Assembly: GCA_964628765.1 (NCBI GenBank)
Contig: CAZVMT010000001.1
Coordinates: 1 to 54,998 of the forward strand
DNA length: 54,998 nt
Direction: 5' to 3'
From: an uncultured Candidatus Bathyarchaeia archaeon
Lineage (GTDB): Archaea > Thermoproteota > Bathyarchaeia > TCS64
Position 1 is the first letter of the stretch. Each line of letters starts with the position of its first letter. Position numbers and translations under genes: made by a program. Positions 166 through 53,928 of this stretch are shown one piece after another. The notes under the pieces are model-generated. The model ran no database searches. It was not told the DNA's origin and was given only the letters and a program-made list of their open reading frames with translations.

Positions 166-218
166 CAGTAGTGCCCGCCCCGTCAAAACCAATATCACTA
201 CACCGGGGCGGTTTATAC

Positions 219-295
219 GGGCCTGATAGGTATCGACGGGCGTTAAGGCGCGCAAGCGCAGCGCTCGGAACCGGGTTCGACTCCCGGCAGGTCCA
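219..295 (+). ncRNA. tmRNA-like tRNA-like domain (TLD) without an mRNA-like domain, or an alanine-type tRNA mimic
   Basis: Acceptor GGGCCUG/CAGGUCC with G3:U70 and A73. The 5' GAU-AGGUAUCGACGGG and 3' UCGGAA-CCGGGUUCGACUCCCGG-CAGGUCCA closely resemble both ends of E. coli tmRNA as I recall it. The middle is only a short capped hairpin (247-265). No canonical D or anticodon arm is present. Confidence 0.6.
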
Positions 296-298
296 CTA

Positions 299-447
299 GG
301 GGCATCCGCGTAAATGGAGATACGCAGAAGTCGTGTGTAATGTAGGTGGAAACTCTTATGGTAAGAGTTTGGCGGTTAGTTGGCGTTCAATACGTCCCCA
401 CCCCCACACGATAAAACCGTCACCCGGTTCGAATCCGGGATGCCCCA
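299..447 (+). ncRNA. 149-nt tRNA-like RNA with canonical acceptor, D and T arms but an 86-nt multi-helix domain in place of the anticodon arm
   Basis: Acceptor GGGGCAU (299-305)/AUGCCCC (440-446) plus A447. D arm GCGU-AAAUGGAGAU-ACGC (308-325). T arm CCCGG-UUCGAAU-CCGGG (423-439). Internal helices are 331-337/405-411, 345-349/398-402, a 9-bp hairpin at 350-370 and a hairpin at 382-396. Confidence 0.55.
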
Positions 448-4394: not shown

Positions 4395-5255
4395 ATGAGT
4401 AAGCTCCTAATTGATGAACACCCCTTGCAGGTTCTTCCGTCGTTGGCTGTTGCCATCGGACTCAATGAAGCCATTATCTTGCAGCAAATCCATTATTGGC
4501 TGAAATTAGCCGAGCGCGGAAATTCTATAGATAAATACCATAGCGGCAAATGGTGGGTTTACAACAGCTATGAGCAATGGCAGGTTGATAACTTTCCATT
4601 CTGGTCTGTAAGCACCATTGGGCGAGTTGTTCGAAGCCTTGAGAAAGCCGGCCTTATCATTAGCCGGAAGATAAAAAGTAACCAATGGGATCATCGCAAG
4701 TGGTACACGATCAATTATGAAACACTGAAGGTGTTAGAATGCAACGATCGATCGTGTCAAAATGACACGATCGGAACAGGTCAAAATGACACGATCTTAC
4801 AAGAGACTACTACAGAGACTACTACAGATACAAAAGACTCTACCGCTGGCGCGGTGCAGCCACCTCAACCTGATGGCAAAAAAGCAACACGCCCCCGCGA
4901 TCTGCTGTTTGATGCGATAGCCGAGCATTCATTTGGCATCAAGCCCGGCACGACCATCGGCGCAGCTACAGCCAAGCGTATCGGCATGGTGAAAAAAGAG
5001 ATCGCCACGTTTGACCCGCCAGTTGAACCAGATGAGTACCGTCTGGCTTGTGTGGCATATCAACGCCAGAAGATAACCCCGGCCCGTGACCCGGTGAAGG
5101 TGCTGGCGATGCTTAACGAGCACCGCAACAAACACGACCGGCTGATGCGTGAAGTCCCCCCCGCCCCGCCAGCGCCTGACGACGGCGTGTATTTCCCGGT
5201 AGACGACTATCGGCGCGTAGACTCTGACGGCAACTGGATAGGAGAGACGGCATGA
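4395..5255 (+). CDS. Putative replication initiator or origin-binding protein
   Basis: GAGGA RBS before ATG 4395. The N-terminal segment is winged-helix-like. The gene lies immediately upstream of, and overlaps, the primase-helicase gene. Iterons lie inside its linker-coding region. Confidence 0.55.
   Translation: MSKLLIDEHPLQVLPSLAVAIGLNEAIILQQIHYWLKLAERGNSIDKYHSGKWWVYNSYEQWQVDNFPFWSVSTIGRVVRSLEKAGLIISRKIKSNQWDHRKWYTINYETLKVLECNDRSCQNDTIGTGQNDTILQETTTETTTDTKDSTAGAVQPPQPDGKKATRPRDLLFDAIAEHSFGIKPGTTIGAATAKRIGMVKKEIATFDPPVEPDEYRLACVAYQRQKITPARDPVKVLAMLNEHRNKHDRLMREVPPAPPAPDDGVYFPVDDYRRVDSDGNWIGETA
4744..4826. repeat. Iteron cluster (candidate origin of replication)
   Basis: Palindrome acgatcgatcgt (4744-4755). 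Inverted repeat cgatcgtgtc-aaaat-gacacgatcg (4749-4773). 17-bp direct repeat gtcaaaatgacacgatc at 4756-4772 and 4780-4796. Tandem gagactactaca x2 (4803-4826). Confidence 0.7.
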
Positions 5256-7237
5256 CGCTAGAGATACTGAGGCAGCGCGGGCTACTGGACGCGGCGCTGG
5301 CGGCGGGATGGGTTGTCGATGGCAACGGGTGGAGCTACCCGGTGTTTAACGCACGCGGCCAGCCGTACATGGTAGACGGCACGCCGGTTCGCCGCTGGAA
5401 GTCGGCGGACGGCAGCAGCCCGAAGTACTTGTGGAAACCACGCAAACCGGCGGGCGTGCGCTACTACCTGCAACCCGACACGGTGGCCGCGATTGATGAT
5501 GCCAGTGTGTTATTCCTTGCCAGTGGTGAACCGGATGTGCTGGCGTTTCGAGCGGCAGGTACCACGAACACGCTGTGCTGGTTCGATGGCGAAGGCAGCG
5601 TGCCGCCTACGCTGGTAGCGGACTTGCAGCGGCTGAATGTGGCGGCGGTAAAGTATTACCCTGACCGCGACCGGACGGGACTGGAAACAGCCGCCAAATT
5701 ATTGGCGGTGTTTGCTGGTAGCGGAATCAGTTTTTCCGCCTATGAACTGCCCGCCAGTATGGGAAGCAAATACGACATCAACGACCTGTGGTGTGATTGT
5801 GACTGTGACGCCGAGCGGTTTGCGATTCGGCTGATGCAGCTGCCGCAGGTGAGCACGACCGACTTGTACTTATACGGCAGTTCGGCCAATGACGCACCGG
5901 CACCGCTTGGCAGCGGCGGTATCACGCGGATTGATGCGAAAGCGCTGCATCGTGAGTGGATAGGCAAGATTATCGATGCGCTAGGCCAACCGGTTAAACG
6001 TGAGGGAAATGTGGACCGGTGGCACTGTCCAACCGGGCGGCACGTCAATGGTGACCGCAACCCTAGCTTGCGGATAGCCACCGATAAGAATCCCGACTTC
6101 CCCTGGCCGGTGTGTTCGTGCGAACTACACGAGGAAGCCGACGCGTGGAGTATCTTAGGCGCGGCGTTAGGTGTGGATAGATGGCAGGAATTCAAGGCAC
6201 GAAAACGCGCCGAAGGTTACGAGGTGGCAGACGACATCGCACCGCCAATGGTAGCTAGAGTCTCTGGTGGCGAAGATGAGCATGGCGCGAATTTTGTTAC
6301 CAGTTCTAGCGCAATTAAAAACGTGCGCTTGTTGTTGCGCGGTGAAATTGAGATTGATATTCCGCCGATGATTTTCCCGTTTAACAGGCTGCATCAGTTT
6401 GACGGTAGTGCATGGATTTCGATGCCGCGAAAGCTGACGTATGTTCTCGGCGTGTCGGGCGGCGGCAAAACATTTTTCTCGGAGCAGCTTGACGCCAATA
6501 TGCGAAAGGATGGATATGACAGTTTGTATTGGGGGCCTGAGTGGTCGCCGGAAGAAATGGTTTACCGATCTATCCAACGGGCGGGCGGGTCCAGCCAGCA
6601 GCGTGTTTTGCTGCATCATCTGTGGACCGCCGATAAGCAAGCCGGTGTCCCCGATCATCTAAACCGGGGCGAACAGATCGGGGCGGCGGCTATTGAGCGC
6701 GACGAGAGTATATTAAACAGCATCGAGCGGTGGCCGGGTATGACTCACTATATCGACGAAAGCGACCTGCCGCCCACCGCGTTAGTCGTTGAAATTCGCA
6801 AGCATGTTAAAAATTTGCGGAGTGAGGGCCGTAAGGTTCAGTCGCTGTTTATCGACTACCTGCAACTATGGAACAACAGCGGCGGCAACGAAGAGGGCGC
6901 ACTAGGCCCTGAGCGGGCGGTTAACCAGATCAAGCTGCTTATCCAGTCATTGGGATTGTTCGGGTTTATCGTTCTGCAACCGCGCAAGGGTGACAGTGAG
7001 CAGGCCCGCGAGGGCGAAGTGCTCCACCACGCCAGCGCGCAGGGATTAAGTGATCAACGTTGTAACCTGATGCTTGGCTTGACGCCCATCTTTGATGAGG
7101 ACGGTTGCAAGTTGAACGAGGCAAAGATAGCCGTGCTCAAAAATTCGATGGGCAACACTGGCAGCATTCGAGTCCCGGTTGATTGGCCGAAACTGCTGTG
7201 GCATGACGTGCAGCACAGTACCGCACCGAAACTTTAG
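5252..7237 (+). CDS. Bifunctional DNA primase/replicative helicase (Toprim, CHC2-like zinc finger and DnaB-like domains)
   Basis: Toprim-like SGEPD...YYPDRDRTG. Zinc motif HCPTGRH...CSCELH. Walker A GVSGGGKT. DnaB-type Walker B LFIDYLQL. Confidence 0.85.
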   Translation: MTLEILRQRGLLDAALAAGWVVDGNGWSYPVFNARGQPYMVDGTPVRRWKSADGSSPKYLWKPRKPAGVRYYLQPDTVAAIDDASVLFLASGEPDVLAFRAAGTTNTLCWFDGEGSVPPTLVADLQRLNVAAVKYYPDRDRTGLETAAKLLAVFAGSGISFSAYELPASMGSKYDINDLWCDCDCDAERFAIRLMQLPQVSTTDLYLYGSSANDAPAPLGSGGITRIDAKALHREWIGKIIDALGQPVKREGNVDRWHCPTGRHVNGDRNPSLRIATDKNPDFPWPVCSCELHEEADAWSILGAALGVDRWQEFKARKRAEGYEVADDIAPPMVARVSGGEDEHGANFVTSSSAIKNVRLLLRGEIEIDIPPMIFPFNRLHQFDGSAWISMPRKLTYVLGVSGGGKTFFSEQLDANMRKDGYDSLYWGPEWSPEEMVYRSIQRAGGSSQQRVLLHHLWTADKQAGVPDHLNRGEQIGAAAIERDESILNSIERWPGMTHYIDESDLPPTALVVEIRKHVKNLRSEGRKVQSLFIDYLQLWNNSGGNEEGALGPERAVNQIKLLIQSLGLFGFIVLQPRKGDSEQAREGEVLHHASAQGLSDQRCNLMLGLTPIFDEDGCKLNEAKIAVLKNSMGNTGSIRVPVDWPKLLWHDVQHSTAPKL

Positions 7238-7252
7238 GACAGGGAGAGTACA

Positions 7253-7510
7253 ATGGCAAGCAGTGATAGTTATGACGTGTTGGAATGGGCAATTAACCAG
7301 ATGCAGGTTTGCGGGTATCTTGACGATGATACTGATTTTTACGACGCGATTCAAGCGTGGTATCAGGACGCTTACGACGACGCATGGCCGCAGGACGAAA
7401 GCCGAACACCGCGCCCGACTGAAAGCGAGATTGATTTTCTGATTGCGCTGGCATCGTTATCGATTGAGGAAGTCAGCGACCTTAAGGATTCCTATTGGTT
7501 GCTGAGGTAA
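7253..7510 (+). CDS. Hypothetical acidic protein
   Basis: GGGAGAG RBS and a compact ORF. Confidence 0.6.
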   Translation: MASSDSYDVLEWAINQMQVCGYLDDDTDFYDAIQAWYQDAYDDAWPQDESRTPRPTESEIDFLIALASLSIEEVSDLKDSYWLLR

Positions 7511-7792: not shown

Positions 7793-8148
7793 CGCGAGAT
7801 TACACCGACATGTTGTCTGGGCTTCTCGGCTGCTCAATATCAATGACGCCTCACAGCGAGTACCGAATCAGTATTGAGCGCGACATCTGGGGCCGTCCGG
7901 CGGTAACGCTCTGGCATCTGTTCCCGTTCGTGAATCACGGCAACGCTTCCCTGCTGCGTTGTCATGTGCCGCTCAAAGGTAGGAATACTACCTTTGAAGC
8001 AGCAAACGACGCATGGCATTTGCTGTCTCAGTGGTGGCAGCATGGCCCGACTGAGATGTTGATCGAGGCGTATGAACTGCGCCAGACGCAGGACTTTACA
8101 AAGCCTGCGTCAATCGGGTATGAACCACAGCAGCTACGGTTGCTGTAA
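7789..8148 (+). CDS. Hypothetical protein
   Basis: ATGA start/stop overlap with the upstream gene. Confidence 0.55.
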   Translation: MTRDYTDMLSGLLGCSISMTPHSEYRISIERDIWGRPAVTLWHLFPFVNHGNASLLRCHVPLKGRNTTFEAANDAWHLLSQWWQHGPTEMLIEAYELRQTQDFTKPASIGYEPQQLRLL

Positions 8149-51010: not shown

Positions 51011-51478
51011 TTAGTCCTCCGCCAACTCGAACCCCAACACCCACACCTCGACGCCGGAGGCAAAGCTACCCGCGCCGTGAATTTCGTCCCACGTCATAGC
51101 GAATTCTTCAACTGGTGTAACCGGGTTACACCATGTTTCCCCGCTTGGACCATGCGAAATTACATCATACCCGGTAAACCCCTCCGACACCGCACCCGCT
51201 TCGGTGATAGCATTCACTGGTTCACGCTTGATGCTGGTGAGTTTGAAGCGCGCGACCGCCTTTTGCCCGCGCCCTGGTTGCACCGCGTAGGTGTTGCCAA
51301 CGCGCCACTTGACCCCATTGTTTGAGTAAAAGTGGACGGCGCGTATCACTGGGCTATCTACGAATACGCCAAAGTTATTATACGATGACATCTCGGCCCA
51401 CTCGGTTTGTTTAACCGGGCGGCGCGTTTCCGACTTGGTACCATTGAGTACCCACTGATATGTTTTTGCGAATTGCAT
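51011..51478 (-). CDS. ASCH (PUA-like) domain protein
   Basis: LNGTKSETRR, RVGNTYAV and ITEAGAVSEGF pattern. Confidence 0.6.
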   Translation of the reverse strand: MQFAKTYQWVLNGTKSETRRPVKQTEWAEMSSYNNFGVFVDSPVIRAVHFYSNNGVKWRVGNTYAVQPGRGQKAVARFKLTSIKREPVNAITEAGAVSEGFTGYDVISHGPSGETWCNPVTPVEEFAMTWDEIHGAGSFASGVEVWVLGFELAED

Positions 51479-51987
51479 TAGCTTCCTCCCTGCTCTGACA
51501 GGTCAAGATTTTTATTATGCAGCACAACCGACCACACCGCGCCGCCGATTGTCTTGGCAGCAAACTGCCCGACCATGATCGGTACCAACAATGGCAACCC
51601 AAACGCCAGCGCCGGAAACACGACGCTGTCTACTGCTGCGCTGGCGATGTTCGATCCGTTGATCTTCACTAATCGCGCACGGCTGCCCATCGCGGCGTAC
51701 ACAACAGTATCGACCACCCCCGCCGCCGCAAACGCTGCGAACGAAGCGACAGCAATCGACGCTGCATTCCAATTAAGCGCCGCCGACAGGATCGACCCGG
51801 CACCGATCAACAGCGCCATATTGCGCCACAGGTCTCGCCCGCTCCACTGCTCATGCAGTCGGTCACGGGCAGTCAGGTCGAGGCCGATGAACAGCAGCGC
51901 GTTGATCACGCTCATGCCCGGACCGAATGCAGCGGTGGTCAAATTCGCGGCAACGATGGCCGCCAGATACATCACAATCAAGTACAT
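51478..51987 (-). CDS. yhhQ: YhhQ/DUF165-family queuosine-precursor (preQ0/preQ1) transporter
   Basis: GGGAGGA RBS before ATG 51987. Six hydrophobic helices. Segments FIGLDLTARD, AGVVDTVVY and SAAVDSVVFPALAF are co-linear with E. coli YhhQ as I recall it. Confidence 0.65.
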   Translation of the reverse strand: MYLIVMYLAAIVAANLTTAAFGPGMSVINALLFIGLDLTARDRLHEQWSGRDLWRNMALLIGAGSILSAALNWNAASIAVASFAAFAAAGVVDTVVYAAMGSRARLVKINGSNIASAAVDSVVFPALAFGLPLLVPIMVGQFAAKTIGGAVWSVVLHNKNLDLSEQGGS

Positions 51988-52619
51988 AGGAATCCTCCCA
52001 TAGCGGGGTGAAATTGAGATAACCACCCCGTCCACGTGTGCACAACGCCAGGCTCATAAATTTCATTGGTACCATCGATGCTATCAGCGCCAATCAGGTG
52101 AAAATGGTTAGCCCGCTTTCGACTGTTGACGCGCCCGATGTGCACCCATTTCTCGCGCCGCTTAGCATCAACAATCAACCGGTCAGCGTCGGGTGACATT
52201 TTCCACTCGGTAGACCCGCCGATAAAAAGCGCTGCAATCTGCGGCCAGGGTACATCATCCGGTGTCATACCATCCTGAGCAGCCAATCCGACAGGGTACC
52301 CGTACCCGGTAATTGCCGGATACCAAAACGGGAATTCCGTCAACGTAGCTGCTGCATCGCCAACAACATCAGGCGCCAGGACAAACACGCACTTACTCCG
52401 CCAAGGCTGAAAATCACACAACATGCGAATGAAATCCGCGTCGCTGTAATGCGCATTAAAGCGATTGTTGTCGGCTGCCCACACATTGGTAATCTGCACA
52501 TCGCGCAATTGACCGGCCCGACTTTTTAATGACGGCGTAACTAATCGCCCCCAGACATCAGGTCTGTTTATTAGCGCGTCTGTAATGTGCTGATTAGCGA
52601 TGTTGGCAAGGCGAAACAT
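51978..52619 (-). CDS. dpdA: DpdA-like (TGT-superfamily) DNA transglycosylase (putative)
   Basis: Ordered motifs WAADNNRFN, LAPDVVGDAAATL, IGGSTEWK, HIGRVNS and GADSIDGT resemble the DSGAF/PDxxGD/GG/HxxG/DSxxW pattern of DpdA. The gene overlaps the transporter gene. Confidence 0.45.
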   Translation of the reverse strand: MFRLANIANQHITDALINRPDVWGRLVTPSLKSRAGQLRDVQITNVWAADNNRFNAHYSDADFIRMLCDFQPWRSKCVFVLAPDVVGDAAATLTEFPFWYPAITGYGYPVGLAAQDGMTPDDVPWPQIAALFIGGSTEWKMSPDADRLIVDAKRREKWVHIGRVNSRKRANHFHLIGADSIDGTNEIYEPGVVHTWTGWLSQFHPAMGGFLCT

Positions 52620-53899: not shown

Positions 53900-53928
53900 T
53901 TGACATTGTGGGCTAAAAAGCCTATGAT
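53900..53928 (+). promoter_or_regulatory. Near-consensus sigma70 promoter (TTGACA-17-TATGAT)
   Basis: Hexamers and spacing read directly. Confidence 0.7.

Follow-up and report, generated by a model that had tools for sequence, protein, structure and literature searches.

An anticodon-less, tRNA-shaped gene in the RNA island of an uncultured tailed phage

The stretch of DNA analysed here, called the window throughout, is the whole 54,998-nt contig CAZVMT010000001.1 of GenBank assembly GCA_964628765.1, which was binned with an uncultured Candidatus Bathyarchaeia archaeon. The contig is complete and circular, with a 55-nt overlap of its ends that leaves 54,943 bp as the unit. Among its genes are those for a large terminase subunit, a DnaD-like initiator, a DnaB-like helicase, two NUMOD4-HNH endonucleases and glycosyltransferases, and the contig is the genome of a tailed phage. 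Near the start of its forward strand lies a 149-nt element (positions 299–447) that is a real, well-formed transfer RNA (tRNA)-shaped gene without an anticodon arm. An initial annotation, made from the sequence, had described this element as a tRNA-like RNA in which an 86-nt multi-helix domain takes the place of that arm.

The bin to which the contig was assigned has intron-bearing tRNAs (Trp, Tyr, Met, Leu and Pro) and no transfer-messenger RNA (tmRNA), and thus looks archaeal. The contig itself has sigma-70-like promoter sites, intrinsic terminators and a tmRNA mimic, and the relatives of its helicase sit in Dehalococcoidia, Chloroflexi and Armatimonadota bins. Because these bacterial-type features disagree with the archaeal look of the bin, the contig is probably a mis-binned bacteriophage, with a host that probably belongs to the Chloroflexota.

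The element is part of an RNA island (~166–985) that is free of open reading frames (ORFs), in a phage that otherwise has little non-coding DNA. Upstream of the island, on the far side of the circular junction, is a promoter-like site, TTGACA-17-TATGAT (53900–53928, forward strand; 11 of 12 consensus matches). All further features of the island are likewise on the forward strand, in the order mini-tmRNA, 3 nt, element 299–447, a 324-nt spacer with a duplicated 24-nt hairpin, tRNA-Thr(UGU), and a CUCCUCCUCUC-loop hairpin with a terminator. The mini-tmRNA (219–298) comprises the tRNA-like domain only: it matches Rfam family RF00023 with 58.4 bits against a gathering score of 47, and 15 nt replace 308 positions of the model. 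It has the pair G3–U70 and a discriminator base, A295, followed by CUA; direct reading confirmed the initial annotation in placing the first base of the element 3 nt past this discriminator. The canonical tRNA-Thr(UGU) at the island's end (772–843) was called by ARAGORN, as the sole tRNA reported window-wide, and by Rfam with 69.5 bits, and a strong intrinsic terminator (937–961; seven G–C pairs, then T6) closes the island.

By direct reading, the element runs 5′-GGGGCAU, CC, D arm, 97 nt, T arm, AUGCCCC, A-3′, and all 16 scaffold pairs are standard (acceptor 7/7, D 4/4, T 5/5). The 5′ strand of the acceptor stem (299–305, GGGGCAU) forms seven Watson–Crick pairs with the 3′ strand (440–446, AUGCCCC), which is followed by discriminator A447; CCA is not encoded after A447, where the sequence reads CAA instead. 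Positions 8 and 9 of the tRNA numbering are occupied by CC (306–307). U8 is near-invariant in tRNAs, and the element has C8 at this place, as does its one relative, L151, described below. The D arm (308–325) consists of GCGU (308–311), a 10-nt loop AAAUGGAGAU and ACGC (322–325), with the G18 G19 dinucleotide of tRNAs present as G316 G317, and its stem is identical in L151. The T arm (423–439) pairs CCCGG (423–427) with CCGGG (435–439) around the loop UUCGAAU and stacks directly on the 7-bp acceptor stem, as in a canonical tRNA with its discriminator. The acceptor stem, D arm and T arm were each matched in a descriptor scan as well as by eye, and the parts listed in the initial annotation, including A447, were thus all found where it had placed them.

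The quality of this scaffold was assessed by putting the anticodon arm and variable loop from the tRNA-Thr of the same phage in place of the insert between the arms. ARAGORN at default settings then calls the chimera a tRNA; only the middle thus deviates, and the scaffold fully matches a tRNA in quality, in agreement with the initial view that the acceptor, T arm and elbow are those of a tRNA. Furthermore, a loose descriptor (7-bp acceptor, 4-bp D arm with GG, 5-bp T arm, total length 95–330 nt) applied to both strands of the window matches one site only, 299–447. The chance rate for this descriptor is 0.175 sites per dinucleotide shuffle of the window, and the site has, beyond what the descriptor asks for, a consensus T loop and a position in a tRNA island right after another tRNA-like gene.

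Between the D and T arms lie 97 nt (326–422), the length first annotated, as against ~22 in an ordinary tRNA. The 5′ junction AGAA (326–329) is 4 nt long, compared with the single nucleotide (position 26) of a tRNA, and the 3′ junction AAAACCGUCA (413–422) is 10 nt long, compared with 4–5 nt in a class I tRNA, as read from the sequence and from a constrained fold. In the minimum free energy (MFE) fold, the insert is closed by a helix of 330–337 with 405–412 (8 bp, including G330–U412), which also forms in cloverleaf-constrained folds and is without comparative support. An internal loop, UAAUGUA (338–344) opposite CC (403–404), separates it from a helix of GGUGG (345–349) with CCACC (398–402), so that the C-rich sequence CCCCACCCCCACACGAU (397–412) holds the 3′ strands of both outer helices. 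Inside them, a three-way junction is built from a 9-bp hairpin with the loop UGG (350–370), a linker (371–381) and a 5-bp hairpin, GGCGU/ACGUC (382–396), in which opening of the closing U–A pair yields a 7-nt loop, UUCAAUA. The helices proposed initially (331–337/405–411, 345–349/398–402 and the hairpins 350–370 and 382–396) are those of this MFE fold.

The fold energy of the whole element is −59.1 kcal/mol (z = −3.86; 0 of 200 shuffles equally stable). Forcing the cloverleaf gives −56.0 kcal/mol, a cost of 3 kcal/mol, and leaves the inner fold the same. The insert alone beats its shuffles modestly (z = −2.22; 5 of 200). A pseudoknot between 372–378 (GGCGGUU) and 415–421 (AACCGUC) was considered and set aside as unsupported, since chance alone would give an estimated ~0.3 such matches and nothing comparable is present in L151. 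A role of the insert as an antisense RNA was likewise rejected, the top complementarity inside the phage being only 12 nt (E = 0.23). The insert carries the sequence CCCCACCCCCAC, and that of L151 carries CCCUCCUCCUGG.

An anticodon arm is missing, as the initial annotation maintained. No 5-bp stem with a 7-nt loop is present at the canonical place, one base past the D arm, and direct reading found no complement of 327–331, the would-be anticodon stem, at the required position. ARAGORN at default settings, with and without its intron options, makes no call on 299–447. Correspondingly, a search of 299–447 against Rfam found no family at gathering scores or to E = 10, tRNA, tmRNA, Y RNA, group I introns and small ribozymes included; the 29-bit gathering threshold of the tRNA family RF00005 was not reached, nor was there a match to that family even at E = 10. 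A Leu-like (class II) parentage, suggested to the eye by the D arm, was dropped, as neither 38 Dehalococcoidia tRNAs nor 153 tRNAs of phage and other loci pointed clearly to one isotype as the parent.

Reading of the contigs that carry nine helicase or DnaD relatives showed a counterpart of the element in L151 only, a contig that came from a scan of genome contigs. L151 is a 22.6-kb phage contig assigned to a Dehalococcoidia bin, and its helicase shares 32% identity with that of the window. Its ORF-free island of 1.4 kb matches that of the window and has, by direct reading, TTGCAT and TATACT hexamers near its start. The L151 element (6804–6988, 185 nt) reads GGGGUAG CG GCGU-GGUAGGAAC-ACGC, a 139-nt insert, UGGGG-UGCAAAU-CCCCA CUACCCC A, with G55 replacing U55, and it shares with 299–447 the GGGG at positions 1–4, C8, the D stem GCGU/ACGC and A73. 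At five pairs (acceptor 5–68 and 7–66; T stem 49–65, 50–64 and 51–63) both sides differ between the two elements and pairing is kept. The L151 scaffold is likewise called a tRNA by ARAGORN once its insert is swapped. Moreover, comparison of the 5′ halves of the two elements gives a score of 8, and their best scores against the 38 tRNAs of the Dehalococcoidia bin reach up to 4 and up to 7.

The inserts of the two elements are unrelated in sequence and differ in layout: in the window one closing helix leads to a three-way junction, and in L151 a hairpin is followed by a long irregular helix. The 139-nt L151 insert folds no better than its shuffles (z = +0.48). Judged from these two sequences, the scaffold is kept between the window and L151 and the inner helices are not. 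The 86-nt multi-helix domain of the initial annotation is thus present as an MFE fold but is not borne out as a conserved structure. The initial annotation had listed missing conservation of the inner helices among the outcomes that would refute it, and this outcome was observed for the insert, though not for the scaffold.

The two islands have their module order in common: a small acceptor-stem RNA with a GGCGCGCAAGCGC hairpin, the tRNA-like element, and a tRNA. In L151 the first of these is a 60-nt RNA-like module (6690–6749) with a 7-bp terminal stem, GUCUCCG/CGGAGAC, and the GCAA-loop hairpin GGCGCGCAAGCGC that the mini-tmRNA of the window has at 247–259. This module lies 54 nt upstream of the L151 tRNA-like element, receives no Rfam call, and may be a reduced counterpart of the mini-tmRNA. 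The tRNA that closes the L151 island (7276–7346) has a 6-nt anticodon loop, UGUGAU; Rfam matches it with 54 bits and a loop deletion, and ARAGORN reports it as 'tRNA-???(tg)'.

Searches for further relatives covered several collections. The element is single-copy in the assembly of the window. Among INPHARED phages, blastn found nothing on 299–447, with matches on the tRNA-Thr part of the query only, and zero matches for the L151 island. No homologue was present in two successive sets, of 60 and of 400 genomes, drawn from relatives of the bin; these genomes are archaeal relatives of a probably mis-binned contig and have little bearing on the host. In IMG/VR, an exact 27-mer and four scaffold patterns retrieved no homologue, the lone match sitting within a gene and failing to pair. 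A loop-only pattern gave four AT-rich chance matches and no homologue in JGI metagenomes, and a pattern of the 3′ half found no homologue of 299–447 in GTDB genome contigs. A wide-gap scaffold pattern occurs once in the bin of L151 and has 0 matches in 400 further genomes of that bin's class, as has a reversed control pattern. The loose descriptor, run over 1.5 Mb of phage contigs, revealed no second long tRNA-shaped element, the remaining matches being a full-length tmRNA, two adjacent tRNAs and weak matches that were left unexamined. A covariance model of the scaffold with a placeholder arm was discarded: its matches end at ~90 nt, do not span long inserts and were partly fitted to the artificial hairpin.

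In IMG/VR, 77 loci (L058–L134) match a mini-tmRNA pattern; many are genuine 75–95-nt tmRNAs with the tRNA-like domain only, and others are the 3′ ends of full tmRNAs. An element like 299–447 follows the pattern in 0 of the 77 loci. The genuine mini-tmRNAs among them belong to diverse uncultured phages, and several have tRNA genes downstream of them. The closest phage with a true mini-tmRNA (L010) has a similar 61-aa zinc-ribbon ORF after it, and ~270 nt of other non-coding sequence at the position of the element.

Several other RNA features were met in these contigs. In the same Dehalococcoidia bin as L151, a further small contig, L193 (G449:C75), has two odd ~90-nt tRNA-like genes (1036–1125 and 1276–1366), reported by ARAGORN as 'tRNA-???', each followed by a Shine–Dalgarno sequence and a small ORF. 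A ~100-nt tRNA-like element (~7860–7965) lies in a divergent early region of a 54-kb phage contig (L056) with a 33% identical helicase; its terminal stem is UAUCCCC/GGGGAUA and its T arm GCGGG-UUCGAUC-CCCGC, and it receives no Rfam call at gathering scores. A related 51-kb phage contig (L155) has, in its non-coding gap, a tRNA gene (~4900–4975) with the anticodon loop GGACGCG, which is without U33. In the window itself, the segment 848–961, comprising the CUCCUCCUCUC-loop hairpin and then the island terminator, has sub-threshold Rfam similarity to ar14 (30 bits) and CcsR1 (23.7 bits), both small RNAs with the CCUCCUCCC motif. An ORF on the reverse strand (51478–52035) matches Pfam Vut_1 (PF02592, 'putative vitamin uptake transporter') with 38.4 bits, a family that we take to be the YhhQ family of queuosine-precursor transporters.

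Among known RNAs, the closest natural analogue of 299–447 is the species 1 RNA (rnaC) of phage T4 (NC_000866, 70908–71046), a 139-nt RNA from the end of the T4 tRNA cluster that is recorded as a 'small, stable RNA' with no further function. Both RNAs are phage-encoded, of similar length (139 and 149 nt), placed in a tRNA gene cluster and devoid of an anticodon arm, and in both a T arm with a GGUUCGAAUCC core is followed by an acceptor-like 3′ end. Their sequence similarity is confined to the 11-nt T-loop core, so homology is not indicated. The T4 RNA also differs in its imperfect acceptor pairing (5 of 7 by direct reading) and in having no evident D arm, whereas 299–447 has all three arms complete, and C8. 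In the spacer downstream of the element (448–771), the blocks AAGCCGAGUAG (492–502) and UGCCGUAAG (571–579) are contiguous in T4 rnaC as UGCCGUAAGCCGAGUAG; with E values of 0.04 and 0.6, these matches may be due to chance.

The same design has been arrived at by engineering. In the 'tRNA scaffold', the acceptor, T and D arms are kept and a foreign RNA is substituted for the anticodon stem-loop; the product is recognised by cellular factors of E. coli, more than 50 constructs have been made, and the chimeras are protected from nucleases (PMC3753655). The scaffolds of this Ponchon and Dardel approach resemble 299–447 in carrying a structured RNA at the anticodon stem-loop. They differ in being man-made and in joining their insert through a regular hairpin stem, whereas the junctions of the element have 4 and 10 nt.

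tmRNA and mini-tmRNAs (RF00023) share with the element the lack of an anticodon, a helix running from the anticodon position to a folded domain, carriage by phages, a 7-bp acceptor stem, a T arm and a discriminator A. In contrast, tmRNA has G3–U70, no D stem and a D-loop analogue GGxAUCGAC, and the element has G301–C444 (G3–C70) and a 4-bp D stem. The tmRNA search of ARAGORN made no call covering 299–447, its sole match, at 80% stringency, being a permuted tmRNA at window positions 205–405. Direct reading of the element for a tag frame with a resume codon found a lone short frame (to UAA, 412–414) without a tag-like tail. An assignment of 299–447 as a tmRNA was therefore rejected on account of its G3–C70 pair, its D stem, the missing tag frame and the missing model match, RF00023 matching the neighbour 219–298 only.

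Y RNAs of the YrlA type, which occur in bacteria and phages and are bound by Ro60/Rsr, are non-coding and have tRNA-like D, T and acceptor modules, as has the element. A 7-bp acceptor stem is a major determinant for RNase P, which cleaves the tRNA-like YrlA of M. smegmatis, an RNA to which CCA is added as well (PMC4201824). YrlA RNAs end in a Ro-binding stem with the tRNA-like module internal, have a GNCGAAN0-1G motif and are encoded ≤4 kb from a TROVE gene (PMC4201824). In the element, by direct reading, this motif is absent, and the RNA ends in the acceptor stem. A six-frame search of the whole assembly, window included, found no TROVE domain (PF05731), while a control found it in D. radiodurans, and Pfam scans of 40 ORFs were negative for it too; PHROGs or Pfam scans of 43 ORFs gave no Ro60/TROVE protein, RNA ligase, RtcB or reverse transcriptase. 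With no TROVE gene, an acceptor-stem end and no motif, a Ro60-linked Y RNA was rejected.

With canonical tRNAs (RF00005, class II included), the element has in common the acceptor, D and T arms, G18 G19, the T-loop consensus, A73 and its place in a tRNA cluster. It departs from them in its missing anticodon arm, its C8, the 97 nt between the D and T arms and the lack of an Rfam match to E = 10. A 2023 survey of ~10,000 candidate viral structured RNAs reports 'tRNA or tRNA-like' candidates that overlap ARAGORN calls, and anticodon-less forms are unmentioned in it (PMC10690425). The element belongs, as a variant, with the poorly understood tRNA-like stable RNAs of phages.

Its anatomy, the island context and the conservation of the scaffold together lead us to favour, tentatively and somewhat short of calling it probable, the reading that 299–447 encodes a non-decoding, tRNA-shaped stable RNA, in which a natural tRNA scaffold carries a ~95-nt phage-specific folded payload in place of the anticodon arm. 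We infer that this RNA would be transcribed, processed and stable, and that the insert would be its working part. Transcription would begin at the promoter-like site near 53900 and stop at the terminator at 961, giving the island as a single precursor. RNase P would cut 5′ of G299, the same cut releasing the 3′ end of the upstream mini-tmRNA, and the 3′ end of the element would be trimmed to A447 and then receive CCA. The scaffold would shield the RNA from decay, as in tRNAs, and the insert, as payload, would offer a binding surface for a host or phage factor. The engineered tRNA scaffold, by its parallel design, shows that such an arrangement can work in bacteria. Several observations weigh against this reading. 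The insert is unconserved, and that of L151 is not even unusually stable (z = +0.48), which suits a payload changing between phages and equally an insert of little importance. The tRNA core may be weakened by the C8 of both members and the G55 of L151. Finally, the scaffold covariation comes from two sequences, which may descend separately from two different tRNAs.

Other explanations place the function elsewhere in the molecule. The scaffold itself may be the working part, a decoy whose acceptor, T arm and elbow soak up a host protein that contacts tRNAs elsewhere than at the anticodon (for instance a defence toxin acting on the acceptor end, an enzyme of modification or repair, a synthetase or EF-Tu) and whose insert only bars decoding; we judge this unlikely, while giving it appreciable weight. 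Phages can answer tRNA-directed defences with tRNA genes, and a decoy would fit the retention of the scaffold signature rather than the insert, the presence of A73 and G1–G4/C69–C72 in both members, and a neighbour that is a second tRNA mimic. It is at odds with the changed core bases U8 (both members) and U55 (L151), which are odd in a faithful mimic, and with a structured insert of 97–139 nt, for which a decoy would have no use; a partner among defence systems or toxins is not identifiable. That the scaffold is kept and the insert exchanged fits the payload and the decoy readings alike and cannot separate them. Alternatively, the fold may be processing punctuation only, recruiting RNase P and 3′ enzymes to free the mini-tmRNA and the 324-nt spacer RNA, with nothing left to do for the excised element, in the manner of mascRNA at the 3′ end of MALAT1 or of mitochondrial tRNA punctuation. 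Just 3 nt separate the mini-tmRNA discriminator from G299, so that an RNase P cut would leave a short trailer for trimming and CCA addition, and the insert is indeed not conserved. Nevertheless, we consider this improbable: a plain tRNA such as the downstream tRNA-Thr would suffice, the upstream module of L151 is 54 nt away rather than 3 nt, and the large insert retained by both phages is left unexplained.

Equally improbable, in our estimation, is a tRNA gene decaying after an insertion or rearrangement in its anticodon region, or a chance fold, with no remaining role. The absence of close homologues across the collections searched, the C8 in place of the conserved U8 and the marginal stability of the insert relative to shuffles would be expected of such a relic, but 16 of 16 scaffold pairs and a consensus T loop are intact, and the second member keeps its scaffold through five double compensatory changes. 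Moreover, the site lies within a compact, ORF-free promoter-to-terminator island of a 55-kb phage with little non-coding DNA, and the chance expectation is 0.175 per genome despite a loose descriptor. A partnership with the mini-tmRNA at the ribosome, in which the RNA, once aminoacylated, would enter the ribosome, or else bind SmpB or EF-Tu, to manipulate ribosome rescue, seems to us very unlikely. The element directly adjoins a tmRNA reduced to its tRNA-like domain, the module order is repeated in L151, the acceptor stem with A73 is intact, and the 8-bp helix leaves where helix 2 of tmRNA would; against this stand G3–C70 rather than the alanine determinant G3–U70, a true D stem that tmRNA lacks, the silence of the Rfam and ARAGORN tmRNA searches on 299–447 and the want of a credible resume codon or tag frame. 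Nor does such a neighbour accompany any of the 77 IMG/VR loci with the mini-tmRNA pattern, some of which are 3′ ends of full tmRNAs, or the true mini-tmRNA of the relative L010. The least credible reading, which we hold to be extremely unlikely, is an intron-bearing tRNA whose insert is spliced out to give a ~75-nt decoding tRNA. The overall shape is that of a tRNA plus an insert, and ARAGORN at 70% stringency can be forced to a tRNA-SeC(uca) with a 53-nt intron, using as its loop the UUCAAUA of hairpin 382–396; direct reading also shows that taking 330–334/408–412 as the anticodon stem puts GUA at positions 34–36, which is deemed coincidental. However, 5-bp stem halves are missing at canonical distances, with junctions of 4 and 10 nt as against 1 and 4–5 nt, the element has no bulge-helix-bulge motif, and the default intron search of ARAGORN is silent. 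A group I core would need a far longer insert, and the insert matches no Rfam intron or ribozyme to E = 10, in keeping with the initial exclusion of a group I intron and of a canonical intron-bearing tRNA. In addition, the 43 scanned ORFs include no RNA ligase, RtcB or splicing endonuclease, and the L151 insert likewise offers no anticodon arm.

Beyond the favoured reading of a non-decoding, tRNA-shaped stable RNA, a broader and distinctly speculative proposal, which we regard as doubtful, is that a multi-RNA operon is kept in this lineage of uncultured phages, probably infecting Chloroflexota. The operon would consist of a small acceptor-stem RNA or tRNA-like-domain-only tmRNA, a C8 scaffold with a swappable insert, and a tRNA. 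The anticodon-less scaffold would serve as a natural, exchangeable RNA-delivery chassis or an anti-defence decoy, be matured and possibly aminoacylated like a tRNA, and act with the mini-tmRNA on host translation or tRNA surveillance. With two members, 299–447 remains a lead rather than a system.

Annotation tools for phage tRNA clusters usually require an anticodon arm, so RNAs like 299–447 are invisible to them. The two members provide a signature for such RNAs: GGGG at positions 1–4, C8, a D stem GCGU/ACGC, A73 and an insert of 100–140 nt. The pairing of the element with a mini-tmRNA in one promoter-to-terminator unit gives a concrete handle for asking whether phages direct groups of tRNA mimics at host translation or at defences that act on tRNAs. 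Should it be made and matured in the predicted way, the RNA would represent the engineered tRNA scaffold's counterpart in nature and a better-formed relative of the long-unexplained species 1 RNA of T4.

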